In this document: in pieces, positions 75 to 6,844 of the stretch
Layout: every line of letters begins with the position of its first letter
Numbering within the stretch: position 1 is the stretch's first letter
DNA from: a virus
Taxonomy: Duplodnaviria > Heunggongvirae > Uroviricota > Caudoviricetes
Virus record (IMG/VR): IMGVR_UViG_2671180984_000037
Reading direction: 5' to 3' (one strand)
Length of the DNA: 8,196 nt
The notes under the pieces: model-generated
What the model saw: the letters and a program-made list of their open reading frames with translations, nothing else
Told to the model about the DNA's origin: nothing
Databases searched by the model: none
Translations under genes and position numbers: made by a program

Positions 75-1361
75 TTACCCTGCTTTCTTATGGGGCATAC
101 ATGGGACACTTTCAGATAGTCTTTTGTTAAGGAGTTCTATCTGTTCGTGATTGTTGTCTTTCATCCATGCTCCGTAAACATTGAATACCATTTGTGCGTT
201 TGTGTGGCCCATCTGGCTTGCGATAAAACTAGGATTAGCTCCTGCGGCAAGTGACCAGCATGCATAAGTATGCCTGGATTGGTACGATTTTCTGTGTCTC
301 AGACCTGCGCGTTTTAAGATACTTGTCCATGACTCCCTGATGGAGTCAACCTTGTAGTGAGGTCCGGACAACTGCTGCTGTTTTGTTACCTGAGGACTAA
401 AAACAAAAGTGCATTTATGCACAGCAGTTCTCCCATATTCCCTCTGCTTCACCTCTACAGAATGTTGCTTTCCAAGCATGGTCATTTCCGCCTGGCTTTT
501 AAGAGCATCAATAGCTGGTTGAACCAGATGAATTGTCCTTCCGGTGCCTGCATCGGTTTTTGGTGGAGTGAATTCGCCAAGTTTTGTATAATTTCTACGG
601 ATGGTTATAGTCCTTGCTTTAAGGTCTATATCTTCCCATGCCAGCGATACCAACTCCCCGTGACGAATACCCGTGTATACAGCGAGAATCCACAGGTTTT
701 TTGTTTGTTGATGACGGCAAGCCTCAATAAAACGAATAAATTCGTCACGGGTGAGAGGATCTGGTTTTACCTTGGACTTTTTTAAGGGAGCCAGACCGTT
801 AAATGGGTTTCCTGAGGTATAACCATTATCTGTTGCAAATTGAAACATTCCAGCTATGGTTGTCATATAGTAGTTTACCGTGACCACTGAGCGCCCTTTT
901 ATGGAAGAAGTCTTTCCATTAGAAAGCTTTTGGTAACCGGTCAACAAATCTCTCCTTACGAAAAGTAAATCCTCTTTTGTTATGGATGAAACCAGTTTTT
1001 TTTCACCTAACATTGGTAACATGTTTTTAATTACTGACTGGTAACGGTTAAGTGCATTCGCACAAATCTCAATTTTCTTAAGGTCCAACCATTTTTCCGA
1101 AAGTGCCTTAACGGTTATCTCTCTTTTTCCCAGACCAAAGTGTTTCAGGTTAGGGGAATTAGGGAACTGCGCGGCGTAGTCGAAACTCCCCATTCTGATT
1201 GCAAAACAAACGGAAGTGCGAAGTTCACCAGCGATCTTCCGGTTTTTGTCTGTGTCAGGAACACCGAGGTTTTCTCTGACACGTTTGCCATTATAGTGAA
1301 ACCATATACGGAGTGATCCTCCATGGTTTTCAACGCCTGTCGGGTATGATGCGTTACTCAT
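75..1361 (-). CDS. int: Phage integrase, tyrosine site-specific recombinase (428 aa)
   Basis: Full-length minus-strand ORF with ATG at 1361 preceded by GGGAGG 4 nt upstream. C-terminal catalytic region carries the tyrosine-recombinase signature (LRHRKSYQSRHTYA ... MVFNVYGAW, i.e. the H-x-x-R box and a downstream catalytic Tyr). It is the last gene of the leftward operon and sits next to a small excisionase-like gene. Confidence 0.9.
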   Translation of the reverse strand: MSNASYPTGVENHGGSLRIWFHYNGKRVRENLGVPDTDKNRKIAGELRTSVCFAIRMGSFDYAAQFPNSPNLKHFGLGKREITVKALSEKWLDLKKIEICANALNRYQSVIKNMLPMLGEKKLVSSITKEDLLFVRRDLLTGYQKLSNGKTSSIKGRSVVTVNYYMTTIAGMFQFATDNGYTSGNPFNGLAPLKKSKVKPDPLTRDEFIRFIEACRHQQTKNLWILAVYTGIRHGELVSLAWEDIDLKARTITIRRNYTKLGEFTPPKTDAGTGRTIHLVQPAIDALKSQAEMTMLGKQHSVEVKQREYGRTAVHKCTFVFSPQVTKQQQLSGPHYKVDSIRESWTSILKRAGLRHRKSYQSRHTYACWSLAAGANPSFIASQMGHTNAQMVFNVYGAWMKDNNHEQIELLNKRLSESVPCMPHKKAG

Positions 1362-1394: not shown

Positions 1395-1649
1395 TTAACC
1401 GGAACTTGCATTTTTGGCACCTGGTTGTTTCTGGTTTTCGATCCATCGCATAATTTCTTCGATGTTGTACAGGCATTCACTGTAATGCCCAGGATCACCT
1501 TCTACAGCGTAATGGCGGTATTCTTTTCCCTGCATCCATGACTTTCTTCTGGCCCGCTCGATGGTGCCGGGCTTTAGCCCTGTTGATGCAATAAGGACTC
1601 TCTCCGTACACCATTTGCTGGGGGTTATCTGATAGATGATTGTCTGCAT
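1395..1649 (-). CDS. Excisionase-like small DNA-binding protein (84 aa)
   Basis: ATG at 1649 with GAGGT 5 nt upstream. Small basic protein immediately upstream of and co-oriented with int, the canonical xis position. Assignment rests on position and size plus a remembered resemblance to the DUF1233-type phage excisionases; not confirmed by search. Confidence 0.55.
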   Translation of the reverse strand: MQTIIYQITPSKWCTERVLIASTGLKPGTIERARRKSWMQGKEYRHYAVEGDPGHYSECLYNIEEIMRWIENQKQPGAKNASSG

Positions 1650-3509: not shown

Positions 3510-4036
3510 TTGCGTAACCCCGATAACTCGTTAAAACGTTCCATAAACATCCCGTAGGCATGGCCTGGTGACAGTGGAATAACTTTGAACATCTCTGTCG
3601 CCGGGATACCTTCCAGTACAGGCCAGAAAGAACCATCATCAAGCCCGAGATCGCGGCGTTCGGTTGCCAGCATAATGAGATCGGCATATTTCACTGGCGT
3701 GCTCATAACAGGAGGTAACCCGTATTTCTCACGGATTACGGCGTCTATTTTTTCTTCCATCCGTTTATAGTCAGGAAGAAGGCGTTTCAGTGGTGCGGGG
3801 ATGTCCTGGCAATATGCTTCTGTTGCATCATGCATTAACGCTTCAAAAGCAAATTCCTGCGGTACCAGCTGGCTGCAAAGCACCGCATGTTGGGCGACGC
3901 TGTAGAAGTGTGAAAGATGTCCTGCAAAGCGACAGATATTTGAAAGGGAAACCGCGATATCGTTAATAACGATGTCGTCTTTATTTATCTTGTCATAATA
4001 AAAATGCTTCCCGGAAAAAGTTTTAATAAATGACAT
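3500..4036 (-). CDS. yfdR: HD-domain 5'-deoxynucleotidase, YfbR/YfdR-like (178 aa)
   Basis: The ORF track begins at a GTG (4063); the in-frame ATG at 4036 with GGAGA 5 nt upstream gives 178 aa. HD-phosphohydrolase motifs are present (SVAQHAVL with the metal-binding His, LMHDATEAY with the HD dyad, then QDIPAPLK matching the GDLPTPVK region of E. coli YfbR). Size and order (120-aa, 274-aa, 178-aa genes) match the yfdP-yfdQ-yfdR genes of the CPS-53/KplE1 prophage as I remember them. Confidence 0.75.
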   Translation of the reverse strand: MSFIKTFSGKHFYYDKINKDDIVINDIAVSLSNICRFAGHLSHFYSVAQHAVLCSQLVPQEFAFEALMHDATEAYCQDIPAPLKRLLPDYKRMEEKIDAVIREKYGLPPVMSTPVKYADLIMLATERRDLGLDDGSFWPVLEGIPATEMFKVIPLSPGHAYGMFMERFNELSGLRKCA

Positions 4037-4129
4037 TTTGTTCTCCACGTATATGCGCTGCACCGCGCTGAATTCTGGTAAAAGGAAGCCCTCACCATCC
4101 GGCGATTATTGAGTAAATTATGTTTCCAT

Positions 4130-4151
4130 AAATGCCCCCGCAGGGGCATTT
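4130..4151 (-). other. Perfect 9-bp stem / 4-nt loop hairpin (AAATGCCCC cgca GGGGCATTT) directly after the yfdQ-like stop
   Basis: Read directly from the sequence. It lies in the 127-nt gap between the yfdQ-like and yfdR-like genes. The downstream minus-strand sequence (AUGGAAAC) is not U-rich, so it is not a classical intrinsic terminator; more likely an intercistronic stabiliser or partial terminator. Confidence 0.35.
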
Positions 4152-4163
4152 GCAGTAATGAAA

Positions 4164-4988
4164 TCAGGCGGTGAAAGTACCAATAAAGGTTTCTACTTTG
4201 CTGTCTTTAAATTTCTCAACAAGCAGATCACGAAATTCGTTAGCCATTTCTTCCTGCACCGCTTCCAGCTGAATAATGCGCAGAACCAGTACAGGACGAT
4301 CGCCAGTGATAATGCTGAGGCGTAATTTAAACGGACGTTCTTTCAGGCCTTCAAACGGAACGCATTTAAATTCAAATGCCACTGGCATAATGTCTTTGGT
4401 CTTCGCTTCGACAGACTCCATCAGGGAGCGTTTGCCGCTGAAGTCATTGTCTTCAAAATCAGCGGTCTGGTTCGCTTCAATTGTGATTTTACGGATCGCC
4501 GCAGCCGCTTTGGTTGCCTGAATGGCGTCACCATTAGCATCAAAGCCCACAAGGTAGTCGGCCCAGTCTTCAATCCATTCTGCCAGTGACTTTTGGGAGT
4601 TACGCTCGCCATTAACAGACAACAGAGCAGAGAACGGTGCTGTCTTTTTCAGTTTGAGAGTGGCGGTGTTATCTGCGTGACCTGGTTCATCAATAGTACC
4701 CAGGTTAAGCACACTGACGGCACGCATATTATCGGCATCGATAAAGCAGCGGGTGCCTTCATCTGCAAGATCTTTAGAATAACGGGTAAAGTCATCGATG
4801 CTGGCAGTGGAAAGCGCACCACGGAAACGGAAGCGATTTAAATTAAATTTTTCCAGATCATGAATGCGGAAATTCTCAGGCAATGCCACAGCATCGGCAC
4901 CAATCTTACTAATAATTTCATTAACACCCTGAGCAGAAATAAGGGCATGGATTTGATTAATTGCGGTTGCGTCTAAGTTCTGAGACAT
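4164..4988 (-). CDS. yfdQ: YfdQ-like phage protein (DUF2303 family as remembered), 274 aa
   Basis: ATG at 4988 with GAGGA 7 nt upstream. The 274-aa length and position immediately upstream of the HD-domain gene match CPS-53 yfdQ. Function unknown. Confidence 0.65.
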
Positions 4989-5053: not shown

Positions 5054-5416
5054 TTAATGACCTGCTGCGCGGAGTTTTCCGTCAGGTTCACCGGCAAGAG
5101 TCAGTAATTGTCCCTGGTCTTCCTGCAGAATAGTCAGGCGACCACCGCGATTGACATACATCGGCGTTTCGGTGGTGTCTTCTTCGGAAATTTTCCCGCG
5201 GTTAGTCGGACGAACATATGAGAGTTTGTGTTTTATTTTCACACGGTTCTCATCAAACGGTTCGATTTCCAGGTTGAGCGAGACCTTCCCTTTGGTTTTC
5301 GTGTTCATCACACCTGAAGCGACTTCACTGAGAACAGCGCCGATTTTGGTTTCAAATACGCCGCCGTCCAGCTCCCCGATAAATGCCTGCACATCAGTAC
5401 TGCGTTCGCTAGCCAT
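5054..5416 (-). CDS. yfdP: YfdP-like hypothetical protein (120 aa)
   Basis: The ORF track extends this frame to 5647 (197 aa) from a non-ATG start. The internal ATG at 5416 has a strong GAGGAG 7 nt upstream and gives exactly 120 aa (MASERSTDVQAFIGELDGG...), matching the remembered size of CPS-53 yfdP. The upstream extension overlaps strongly structured DNA. Confidence 0.55.
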   Translation of the reverse strand: MASERSTDVQAFIGELDGGVFETKIGAVLSEVASGVMNTKTKGKVSLNLEIEPFDENRVKIKHKLSYVRPTNRGKISEEDTTETPMYVNRGGRLTILQEDQGQLLTLAGEPDGKLRAAGH

Positions 5417-5464
5417 TTTGCTGCTCCTCATCATATCGACCCTGCAAGGTCGGTTGGTTTCTCC

Positions 5465-5553
5465 ACAAAACAGAGAAGAGCACCTGCGGTGGCAGCCGCC
5501 CGGGTGGATTGGGTTATGAGCCCGTCGTCCGGTGATGCTCTTCTCTGTTTTGT
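5465..5553. repeat. 18-bp perfect inverted repeat (ACAAAACAGAGAAGAGCA / TGCTCTTCTCTGTTTTGT) around a 53-bp GC-rich spacer
   Basis: Arms at 5465..5482 and 5536..5553 are exact reverse complements, read directly from the sequence. Located in the PL leader 50-140 nt upstream of the yfdP-like start codon. Confidence 0.8.
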
Positions 5554-5599
5554 AAAAAGAGCGGTACCAGCCGGAAGCAAGTGTACAAACTGGTACCGC
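5552..5599 (-). terminator. Terminator/attenuator-like hairpin in the early-left leader: 10-bp GC-rich stem (GCGGTACCAG / CTGGTACCGC), about 19-nt loop, then UCUUUUUAC on the minus strand
   Basis: Inverted repeat 5561..5570 / 5590..5599 read directly. On the transcribed (minus) strand it is followed by TCTTTTTAC (plus 5552..5560). The loop is larger than in typical intrinsic terminators, hence low confidence. Confidence 0.35.
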
Positions 5600-6000
5600 C
5601 AAAGCAGTGGCTGTTGTGGTGGGGTTGTCACTCAGGCGTATGGTCAACCTGACAATCCGGTGTCCTCAACGGGGAAAGAGTAACCCCGCCATACTTACCG
5701 CCGCGCCATTTCGCGGATGACCACAACGCTGAGAGCACTTAGCCAGTTACGGCACCACACTTTGTCGCGGCTCCATAAATGCCCTCATCGTTGCACCCTG
5801 GTCTCTTCCCAGGCGTCAAACCGGATCGCCACGCTGGTTAGGCGTCTTATCAGCATCATCATTGACTTGCACATTCCGGCTACCTGGTTTGTTTGCCCTA
5901 GCAAGGAGTGGATTGTCCCCTTTAACGTCCCCAGACCGCTAACGACGCATGTGCCATACGCCGTGTTACAACCAAATTTTGTTTGAATCTTGCCTGCCTC

Positions 6001-6045
6001 ATGTTTCTTTTGGATACATTATGTATCTCATGGGTACATTGTCAA
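6001..6045 (-). promoter_or_regulatory. PL-type early-left promoter (-35 TTGACA, 16-bp spacer, -10 CATAAT on the minus strand) overlapped by two 19-bp operators
   Basis: On the minus strand, TTGACA corresponds to plus 6040..6045 and CATAAT to plus 6018..6023. Operator-like 7-5-7 palindromes: ATGTATC-tcatg-GGTACAT (6021..6039) and ATGTTTC-ttttg-GATACAT (6001..6019), centres 20 bp apart. The same half-site recurs at the cI/cro divergent region. Confidence 0.6.
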
Positions 6046-6072
6046 GTATAAAAAAACCTGCCGAAGCAGGTT
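6046..6072 (-). terminator. Rho-independent terminator downstream of the cI-like repressor gene
   Basis: Stem AACCTGC / GCAGGTT (6055..6061 and 6066..6072) with CGAA tetraloop, followed on the minus strand by UUUUUUUAU (plus 6048..6056). Sits 13 nt after the repressor stop codon and just upstream of the PL -35. Confidence 0.65.
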
Positions 6073-6084
6073 CATAAATATTGA

Positions 6085-6759
6085 TTAGGCCTTTATTGTG
6101 TATCTTCTTGGTTTTCCCGAGAAAATCACTGTACCAATTATAGAGCAATTACCGTTAATCTTAATGTAAGGCTCAGGCCAGTTTGGGTTTAATGCTTTGA
6201 GATAACGCTGTGTTCCATCTTCTATCAATCGCTTGAAGGTGGTTTCGCCTGTATCGTGCATCAATGCAATAACGTCGTCACCGTGGCAGGCAGGGACTTC
6301 GGGATCAACAAAAATCATGTCTCCAGGGCGGTACTCATCAATCATTGAATCACCAATCACCCGCAAGATATAAGTCATTTCGCCACAGGGTACAGGGCAG
6401 GGATACGTTTCTGCTGTGCTCAAATCAACCTCAGAATAGCCAACTTCTTTCCATGCTCCGGCCTGTACCCATGATATGACAGGGACTAACGTTATTTGTT
6501 TGTTAGTGATTGAAACATCAGGTTTTTTTGTGATGTTCGTTGTCTGGTGTTCTTGATCAAGCCATCCGACAGGCAGGTCGAAACATTTTTCGATGTGGCG
6601 TGCCATGCTGTCACCGATATTTTTAGTAGCGCCATCCCCCATAAACCTGCTGGTTTGGGTTGGCTCGCGATCAATCATGGTGGCAAAGGATGAATTTCCG
6701 CCAACACCATCTCTCAGTTTTCTGGCGTTAGACCGCCGGATGTCATGGATTGTTTTCAT
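6085..6759 (-). CDS. cI: CI-type phage repressor, N-terminal HTH plus C-terminal LexA-like S24 peptidase domain (224 aa)
   Basis: C-terminal domain has the autocleavage catalytic motifs VIGDSM (Ser) and TFKRL (Lys), and a linker Ala-Gly (WVQAGAW) as the candidate cleavage site. Divergent from a Cro-like gene with operators between them. No Shine-Dalgarno before the ATG, consistent with a leaderless PRM transcript as in lambda cI. Confidence 0.9.
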   Translation of the reverse strand: MKTIHDIRRSNARKLRDGVGGNSSFATMIDREPTQTSRFMGDGATKNIGDSMARHIEKCFDLPVGWLDQEHQTTNITKKPDVSITNKQITLVPVISWVQAGAWKEVGYSEVDLSTAETYPCPVPCGEMTYILRVIGDSMIDEYRPGDMIFVDPEVPACHGDDVIALMHDTGETTFKRLIEDGTQRYLKALNPNWPEPYIKINGNCSIIGTVIFSGKPRRYTIKA

Positions 6760-6775
6760 AACGAAATTAAAACCT

Positions 6776-6844
6776 TTGTACCGATAAGGTACAAGTATCT
6801 TGAAGGTTCATTTCAATCATGTAATATGTATACCGGAGGTACAT
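6776..6844. promoter_or_regulatory. OR-like operator/promoter region between cI and the cro-like gene (divergent PRM/PR)
   Basis: 19-bp 7-5-7 palindromes TTGTACC-gataa-GGTACAA (6776..6794) and ATGTATA-ccgga-GGTACAT (6826..6844) share the half-site seen at PL. Candidate PR: -35 TTGAAG (6800..6805), 16-bp spacer, -10 TAATAT (6822..6827), then GGAGG (6835..6839) and ATG at 6850. Confidence 0.55.

Follow-up and report, generated by a model that had tools for sequence, protein, structure and literature searches.

DicF is among the best-studied prophage small RNAs, known from cell division, metabolism and EHEC virulence. At 20-25 bp, a helix is as long as E. coli RNase III substrates are expected to be. 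In phage lambda, an RNase III hairpin lies between nutL and the N ribosome-binding site, and its processing alters downstream expression, in that case by activating it. In the metY-rimP-nusA-infB operon, an RNase III hairpin comes after a small stable RNA and its terminators; processing there frees the RNA and determines what becomes of the mRNA, by triggering decay. The rimP-metY position is listed as a known RNase III site in the examined part of Table S1 of PMC5371410.

At the dicBF site of the defective lambdoid prophage Qin, RNase III processing of the full dicBF mRNA is reported to yield the 72-nt DicF, in accounts citing Faubladier 1990 (PMC5069750, PMC9438474). In Qin we found a 21-bp stem (L162 2561-2581 / 2692-2712) that starts 3 nt after the DicF U-tract, encloses ~110 nt unrelated to the core of the element described below, and ends 15 nt before the dicB AUG. 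The end of the 72-nt form, 19 nt beyond the 53-nt form, falls by our own arithmetic on these secondary sources at L162 2572, base pair 12 of the stem, and we infer that the Qin RNase III cut lies inside this stem. A position labelled dicF-dicB in the examined part of Table S1 is RNase III-dependent on thin counts, with 26 reads in wild type versus 0 in the rnc mutant (PMC5371410). As a separate observation, two segments of Qin are complementary: CGUGCGCU (L162 2355-2370), close to where RNase III is reported to create the 5' end of 190-nt DicF, and AGCGCACG (2592-2608), just inside the long stem downstream of dicF. Their complementarity hints at a long-range duplex flanking DicF.

Structured cis RNAs are also found at the start of the early-left operon in N-less lambdoid phages, namely the put RNAs of HK022 and HK639. 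These consist of two stem-loops, with no 20-25-bp closing helix (PMC9378689). The genome paper on phage LLS, having found no homologue of N, proposed a put-like mechanism (PMC12315714).

The locus described here lies in a window of 8,196 nt, the whole stretch of DNA that was analysed. It contains an 18-bp inverted repeat that forms P1, the helix at the base of a structured RNA domain (105-130 nt) in an early-left leader. An RNase III helix beside DicF in a phage early leader is already known, whereas the conserved apical domain is not; the searchable literature held no description of the element.

Probable early-left leader and DicF-family terminator

The window corresponds to the left arm of a lambdoid prophage, being identical to E. 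coli O26:H11 prophages and sharing ~98% identity with phages 2H10, Ayreon, cdtI and Stx2c phages. The whole yfdP operon is on the minus strand, a correction to the context given in a preliminary description of the repeat, and the cro-like ymfT is divergent from the minus-strand genes (Table 1). An operator-like TGTACC-N5-GATACA overlaps the spacer of the candidate PL and agrees with the OR operators of the cI-cro interval (6776-6794 and 6825-6843); the palindromes of that interval (6776-6843) read TGTACC-N5-GGTACA and TGTACC-N3-GGTATACA. We infer from these signals that the 670-nt gap upstream of yfdP is the leader of a repressor-controlled early-left operon. Because the gap is taken as this leader, the repeat would be transcribed as minus-strand RNA. 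It sits in ~600 nt of untranslated leader, from the candidate PL (6045-6018) to the yfdP start at 5416, and inspection of the 670 nt for ORFs revealed none that is convincing and none that resembles N.

Table 1. Coordinates of the genes, signals and RNA features in the window
Feature	Position	Strand	Basis or remark
Integrase	75-1361	-	gene map
xis	1395-1649	-	gene map
yfdR	between xis and yfdQ	-	gene map
yfdQ	4164-4988	-	gene map
yfdP	5054-5416	-	gene map; 670-nt gap upstream
yfdP translation start: AUG 5416-5414, SD GAGGAG 5429-5424, two in-frame upstream AUGs 5434-5429	5414..5434	-	
Small hairpin CGACC-UUGCAG-GGUCG, between element and yfdP ribosome-binding site	5437..5452	-	fold, relatives
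P1 3' arm in transcript (UGCUCUUCUCUGUUUUGU)	5465..5482	-	reading, repeat search, fold, covariation
P3 variable hairpin, GCGG CUGCCA CCGC	5486..5499	-	alignment of versions
Nearly invariant 34-nt apical core (A CCGGACGACGGGCUCAUAACCCAAUCCACCCGG)	5500..5533	-	alignment of versions
CGGGCUCAUAACCC, match to tRNA-fMet anticodon arm	5511..5524	-	within apical core
P1 5' arm in transcript (ACAAAACAGAGAAGAGCA)	5536..5553	-	reading, repeat search, fold, covariation
DicF-family intrinsic terminator: hairpin 5600-5561, U-tract UCUUUUU 5560-5554	5554..5600	-	Qin alignment, fold
Leader segment homologous to region upstream of Qin dicF, body of 190-nt DicF precursor	5601..5732	-	5' limit approximate
Candidate PL promoter, TTGACA-16-CATAAT, near-consensus	6018..6045	-	sequence
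Terminator of cI-like ymfK, just upstream of PL	6054..6073	-	sequence
ymfK, cI-like LexA-family repressor	6085-6759	-	gene map

On its 3' side, P1 is followed by a conserved GGAGAA, the small hairpin with its UUGCAG-like loop and the ribosome-binding site, and in relatives a hairpin with a (U/G)(U/G)GCAG-type loop again lies between element and ribosome-binding site. Two in-frame AUGs precede the annotated yfdP start by 15 and 18 nt, and a longer ORF is annotated in phage Ayreon. If the 16-nt hairpin (5452-5437) were looped out, GGAGAA would lie ~8 nt from these upstream AUGs, as a possible split Shine-Dalgarno sequence. Two other features of the leader were recorded. A 26-codon arginine-rich ORF (MRQARFKQNLVVTRRMAHASLAVWGR; 5922-6002, minus strand) starts ~8 nt from the predicted PL transcription start and is followed by a 10-bp hairpin (ACGGCGUAUG GCA CAUGCGUCGU). 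An exact 13-nt direct repeat, TCCATAAATGCCC, occurs at 4125-4137 and 5772-5784; the left copy is within a terminator-like hairpin (4124-4146) of the yfdQ-yfdR gap, annotated as a terminator in phage Ayreon, and a similar hairpin directly follows the element in some relatives (e.g. L127).

The hairpin that adjoins the repeat was compared with the Qin dicF-dicB region taken from a K-12 genome. About 115 nt of window leader (5605-5720) and the terminator align with the Qin region upstream of dicF, the DicF hairpin and its U-tract, with the motifs UUUGGCGGUA[C/U]CAGUUU and CCGC[U/C]CUUUUUA in common. The window lacks ~20 nt from the beginning of the dicF region, the DicF 5' end among them, and the similarity ends exactly at the first base of P1 (5553; the U-tract ends at 5554). 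Judged by this alignment, the adjoining hairpin is a homologue of the Qin DicF terminator, and the minus strand of 5554-5732 carries a predicted DicF paralogue, made up of the hairpin core and the leader of the 190-nt precursor. The hairpin matched neither RF00039 nor RF02076, even at E<=10. In relatives, these Rfam models (DicF and STnc100) cover RNA just upstream of the element and not the inverted repeat: the e14 terminator is a weak DicF match (28.5 bits versus a gathering score of 48), and SfV, ST64B and e14 have sub-threshold STnc100 matches immediately 5' of the element, an STnc100-like module replacing the DicF-upstream leader segment in other lineages. The motif GCGGCU(C/G)AGCGCACGCGG also opens this module in SfV, e14 and ST64B. 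A GGTACC in the terminator hairpin was considered as an operator and rejected, being common to phages with differently annotated repressor genes. A 20-nt direct repeat at 85% (GCGGTACCAGCTGGCTGCAA / GCGGTACCAGCCGGAAGCAA) links 3859-3878, inside yfdR, with 5561-5580, the 3' half of the DicF-like hairpin, and is probably due to chance.

The association of DicF-type terminators with long stems extends beyond the window. Among 104 distinct DicF-core contexts in IMG/VR, the core was followed by the present element in 48, by a Qin-type stem in about 50 and by neither in 1, the stems measuring ~26 bp (two mismatches allowed) and ~25 bp, respectively. This suggests that DicF-type terminators are as a rule followed directly by a long stem, realised by two unrelated inserts, and that the one conserved, undescribed RNA domain reported here accompanies about half of these terminators. 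Whether the downstream early genes, which in complete phages include excision and integration functions, are expressed depends on the handling of read-through at the DicF terminator.

The inverted repeat as the basal helix of an RNA domain

The preliminary description had reported an exact 18-bp inverted repeat, unlikely by chance, that would form a long stem as RNA, and these claims were borne out. By direct reading and a repeat search, ACAAAACAGAGAAGAGCA lies at 5465-5482 and its reverse complement at 5536-5553, with a 53-nt spacer, and in 300 simulated first-order-Markov sequences of 8.2 kb each, perfect inverted repeats with spacers of <=100 nt never exceeded 15 bp. On DNA the complementarity reaches 25 nt at 88%. 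The minus strand of 5400-5620 (221 nt) folds with z = -6.5, with 0 of 200 shuffles equally stable, into the terminator-like hairpin with UCUUUUU and a 25-bp repeat helix that includes G.U pairs. This helix comprises 18 perfect base pairs, 20 with a U.G and a C-G, and 25 with the U-tract/GGAGA extension. Pairing of the 5' arm goes on inward to 5534 (U.G, C-G) and outward into the U-tract at 5554-5558, and that of the 3' arm reaches G5483/G5484 on one side and GGAGA (5464-5460) on the other. The repeat was also correctly said to adjoin the U-tract of the terminator-like hairpin and to lie upstream of yfdP, but its distance from the Shine-Dalgarno sequence, given as about 50 nt, has to be revised, since 5465 is 35 nt from GAGGAG and 48 from the AUG. 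Overlooked at that stage was that the adjoining hairpin belongs to the DicF small RNA family, which is the key to the context.

The alignment of versions of the element bears directly on the nature of the repeat. First, in 33 diverse versions, 93.5% of P1 cells were paired, compared to 38-49% when the partners were slid by 1-3 columns. Second, five P1 pairs changed on both sides in these 33 versions, e.g. G-C in 20 and C-G in 13, or A-U in 24 and G-C in 7, and the covariation score was 0.140 versus 0.068 for shuffled alignments, none of 500 shuffles reaching the observed value. Third, the 20 P1 pairs over 91 distinct versions comprised 1589 Watson-Crick, 149 G.U and 12 A.C cells. The G.U:A.C ratio of 149:12 and the covariation therefore argue that selection acts on the minus-strand RNA rather than on the DNA or the other strand. 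We regard it as highly probable that the repeat is a selected RNA helix. Its perfection in the window is a minority state: all 18 P1 pairs are Watson-Crick in just 5 of the 91 versions and position 11 is mismatched in 54, while at arm pair 16 the 80 loci with identical YfdP show G.U in 74, A-U in 3 and the window's own G-C in 2. The U-tract/GGAGA extension is kept in most versions.

Within P1, the two parts of the domain differ in conservation. P3 is 14 nt in the window, other versions have hairpins of ~37-41 nt in its place, and its base shows compensatory changes. The apical core is nearly invariant across ~10 genera, while flanks, P3 and neighbouring genes vary. No Rfam 15 family fits the element, the covariance models giving noise matches on the wrong strand only.

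The core motif of the element, GACGGGYTMATNNCCCNAYCCAYCC, was scanned against GTDB species representatives and IMG/VR. It matched 28 GTDB species representatives, mostly Enterobacterales, 2 of the 28 being evident chance matches, and at least 120 IMG/VR contigs. Besides Escherichia, ~10 genera were found, among them Citrobacter, Enterobacter, Kosakonia, Mixta, Atlantibacter and Buttiauxella, and further Leclercia, Pseudescherichia, Pseudocitrobacter, Erwinia, Klebsiella and Shigella. Of 5426 complete E. coli genomes searched, 2809 carry the 89-bp element itself, typically once (median 1) and at most five times, so that a conserved domain occurs in about half of these genomes and in many other Enterobacterales. 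At every inspected locus it lies in a lambdoid prophage between a cI-type repressor and the first early-left gene, which varies (YfdP, RdgC-like, xisE in e14 and others), and in 153 of 156 instances a T-tract of at least 4 lies directly 5' of P1.

The element measures 103-107 or 122-130 nt. Since these length differences are not multiples of three, ORFs annotated over it are unlikely to be real, and a coding role, for which the leader also held no convincing ORF, was rejected. RefSeq annotates a 103-aa 'YmfH' across the e14 copy of K-12 (L003 2502-2813 = window 5456-5561) and its DicF/STnc100-like neighbour, and hypothetical proteins are annotated over the element in Ayreon and several phage records. 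On the grounds of sequence length, ymfH and the other ORFs across the element are probably spurious; literature searches on ymfH returned nothing relevant.

Proposed RNase III processing and the apical core

We lean towards an RNase III processing function for the repeat, as a helix at the junction of small RNA and mRNA, because the Qin stem follows the DicF U-tract and the end of 72-nt DicF falls at its base pair 12. Both sites belong to a repressor-controlled early operon of a defective lambdoid prophage with a DicF-family terminator as neighbour, and both have a long-range stem of 21-25 bp, set 0-3 nt behind the U-tract and closing a short distance upstream of the first ORF. They differ in that the Qin stem lies 2-3 nt from the dicB Shine-Dalgarno sequence, compared to ~35 nt and a small hairpin in the window, and in that cleavage is documented, in the sources as far as consulted, for Qin only. 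Neither the arms of the Qin stem nor the RNA it encloses aligned with the arms or core in the window; on this comparison the two stems are analogous in architecture, not homologous. P1 has the length of about two helical turns (20 bp or more) of an RNase III helix. The mismatch at position 11 in 54 of 91 versions is compatible with single-strand nicking by RNase III and equally with something else. In the examined portion of the RNase III sites in Table S1, the e14 copy of K-12 has no entry (PMC5371410).

The other two systems resemble the locus in part. Like the lambda N leader, compared here by description, the window places a long stem within untranslated leader RNA ahead of the first PL-operon gene; lambda has N and nutL, whereas the window leader has a DicF-like small RNA and no N-like ORF. 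The metY operon likewise joins a small RNA to an RNase III hairpin, and its small RNA is tRNA-fMet, the anticodon arm of which is copied in the core of the element. There, however, a complete tRNA gene lies upstream of the hairpin, while the window has just 14 nt inside the apical domain of the stem.

If the repeat is an RNase III helix, the following sequence of events would be expected. After derepression, PL transcripts that stop at the DicF-type terminator would yield a DicF-like small RNA, while those that read through would fold P1. By analogy with Qin, host RNase III would cut the P1 duplex, separating a 3'-extended small RNA from the downstream mRNA, freeing the apical domain and leaving a yfdP-...-int mRNA with a new 5' end beside the small hairpin. 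Such cleavage may raise or lower expression; the lambda and metY-nusA cases go in opposite directions. In this form the processing module is defined and testable.

Since RNase III needs no conserved apical sequence, the near-invariant core implies a second function. Within it, all 14 nt of CGGGCUCAUAACCC agree with the E. coli initiator-tRNA anticodon arm, the tRNA sequence being confirmed in all 5426 genomes, and comprise three G-C pairs and the loop CUCAUAA with anticodon CAU. By a simple count, the chance of a 14-nt match to any tRNA anticodon arm is ~1e-6. All 14 nt are kept in 64 of the 91 versions and CAU in 90. RNase III processing does not explain this copy of an initiator-tRNA anticodon arm in a phage leader.

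A further reading of the element, unlikely overall but compatible with RNase III cutting, is that it binds a host machine through the core, the anticodon-arm hairpin mimicking initiator tRNA and P1 presenting or releasing the mimic. The machine in question might be the 30S P site/IF3, MetRS or an anticodon nuclease, for example an initiator-tRNA-cleaving VapC. The thrS operator, an mRNA leader that mimics an anticodon arm, provides a precedent; besides the retention of the 14 nt and CAU, the near-invariance of the core amid varying surroundings fits such a role, and no phage protein is common to all contexts, which points to a host partner. The likeness is partial, however: just three stem pairs match and the two outer pairs of the tRNA-fMet stem are mismatched in the element, loop positions 37-38 vary (AA, UC, UA), unlike those of the tRNA, and no further likeness to tRNA-fMet was found beyond the 14-nt arm. 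ARAGORN called 0 tRNA genes and the Rfam tRNA model had no match at E<=10. The fold of the core bears on both sides. Model A has a five-pair outer helix, with G-C, A-U and G.U at one pair, and a GGG/CCC hairpin, and covariation between columns 34 and 58 favours the fold that contains the anticodon-arm hairpin. Model B dissolves this hairpin and gains two double changes, both from the e14 copy alone, and the two models fit the alignment equally well. Joining both ideas, the apical domain might be an initiator-tRNA mimic excised by RNase III as a small RNA that titrates or binds a host factor, a proposal drawn from the sequence match that we consider doubtful. If true, such a mimic would let an induced phage act on translation initiation or blunt a tRNA-targeting defence. 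Literature searches on initiator-tRNA mimics in prophages returned nothing relevant.

Other readings of the element

The preliminary description had raised antitermination among possible control functions. In this reading, which we hold as doubtful as the excised mimic, the element would be a cis-acting processive antiterminator RNA, an analogue of HK022 put, allowing read-through of early-left terminators in N-less phages. Its place at the head of an operon whose 670-nt leader lacks an N-like ORF is what such an RNA would occupy, the invariant core would suit a conserved partner such as RNAP, and LLS, without an N homologue (PMC12315714), carries the element. Other observations do not fit. 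Alignment of the element with HK022 putL/putR and HK639 putL-like RNA scored 24-31, compared to 19-21 for a reverse-complement control, which is noise; put RNAs have no 20-25-bp closing helix. They precede the terminators, whereas the element lies downstream of the first strong terminator, that of DicF type, and upstream of later terminator-like sites such as 4124-4146. HK022 has a second copy in the right operon, whereas BLAST found one copy of the element per phage record, always in the left-operon leader. A boxA/nut reading of CGCUCUUUUUACAA was rejected as its GCUCUU motif is not conserved in relatives. Of the first proposals, that of an RNA stem in a leader is supported, with a role in control or processing as the best reading; antitermination has gained no positive support.

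Slightly less probable still, and improbable overall, is that the element acts uncleaved, as a structural insulator or in translational control, with P1 locking the U-tract and GGAGA or setting the conformation of the mRNA. It lies 35-48 nt upstream of the yfdP start, the U-tract/GGAGA extension is kept in most versions, and looping out of the small hairpin would bring the SD-like GGAGAA close to the upstream AUGs. Against this, the real Shine-Dalgarno sequence is never inside P1, spacer and first gene differ and no conserved alternative pairing was found among versions, and the Qin analogue is reported, in the sources as far as consulted, to be cleaved. Sequestration of the Shine-Dalgarno sequence by the 3' arm was rejected, fitting some YfdP-type starts and not the RdgC-type leaders, as was a kissing interaction of the P3 loop with the loop of the downstream hairpin, which is inconsistent across versions. 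The CA-rich 5' arm resembles a GcvB target; an AgvB-like anti-sRNA was rejected, with no RF02702 match and AgvB itself at the PR'/moron site.

A DNA feature, whether a MITE-like insertion, a palindromic protein-binding site or a cruciform, is very improbable in spite of the perfect arms in the window, given a median of 1 copy per genome (maximum 5 in E. coli) in a constant prophage context, flanks (...TCC / AAA...) without target-site duplication, the presence of the element in all 80 loci with identical YfdP, and versions most of which are imperfect as DNA, with G.T 'mismatches', and paired as RNA. The suggestions of a MITE and of a protein-binding palindrome, and the view that a perfect repeat indicates recent origin, are accordingly withdrawn; of the checks proposed with them, the genome search for dispersed copies came out negative and the comparison of related prophages revealed the covarying stem. 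The element also occurs in 38 plasmid records. Several of these are phage-sized, e.g. CP085522.1 (41 kb) and OX345170.1 (43 kb), and may be phage-plasmids or mis-binned prophages; Salmonella plasmids of 144.8 kb are also among them.
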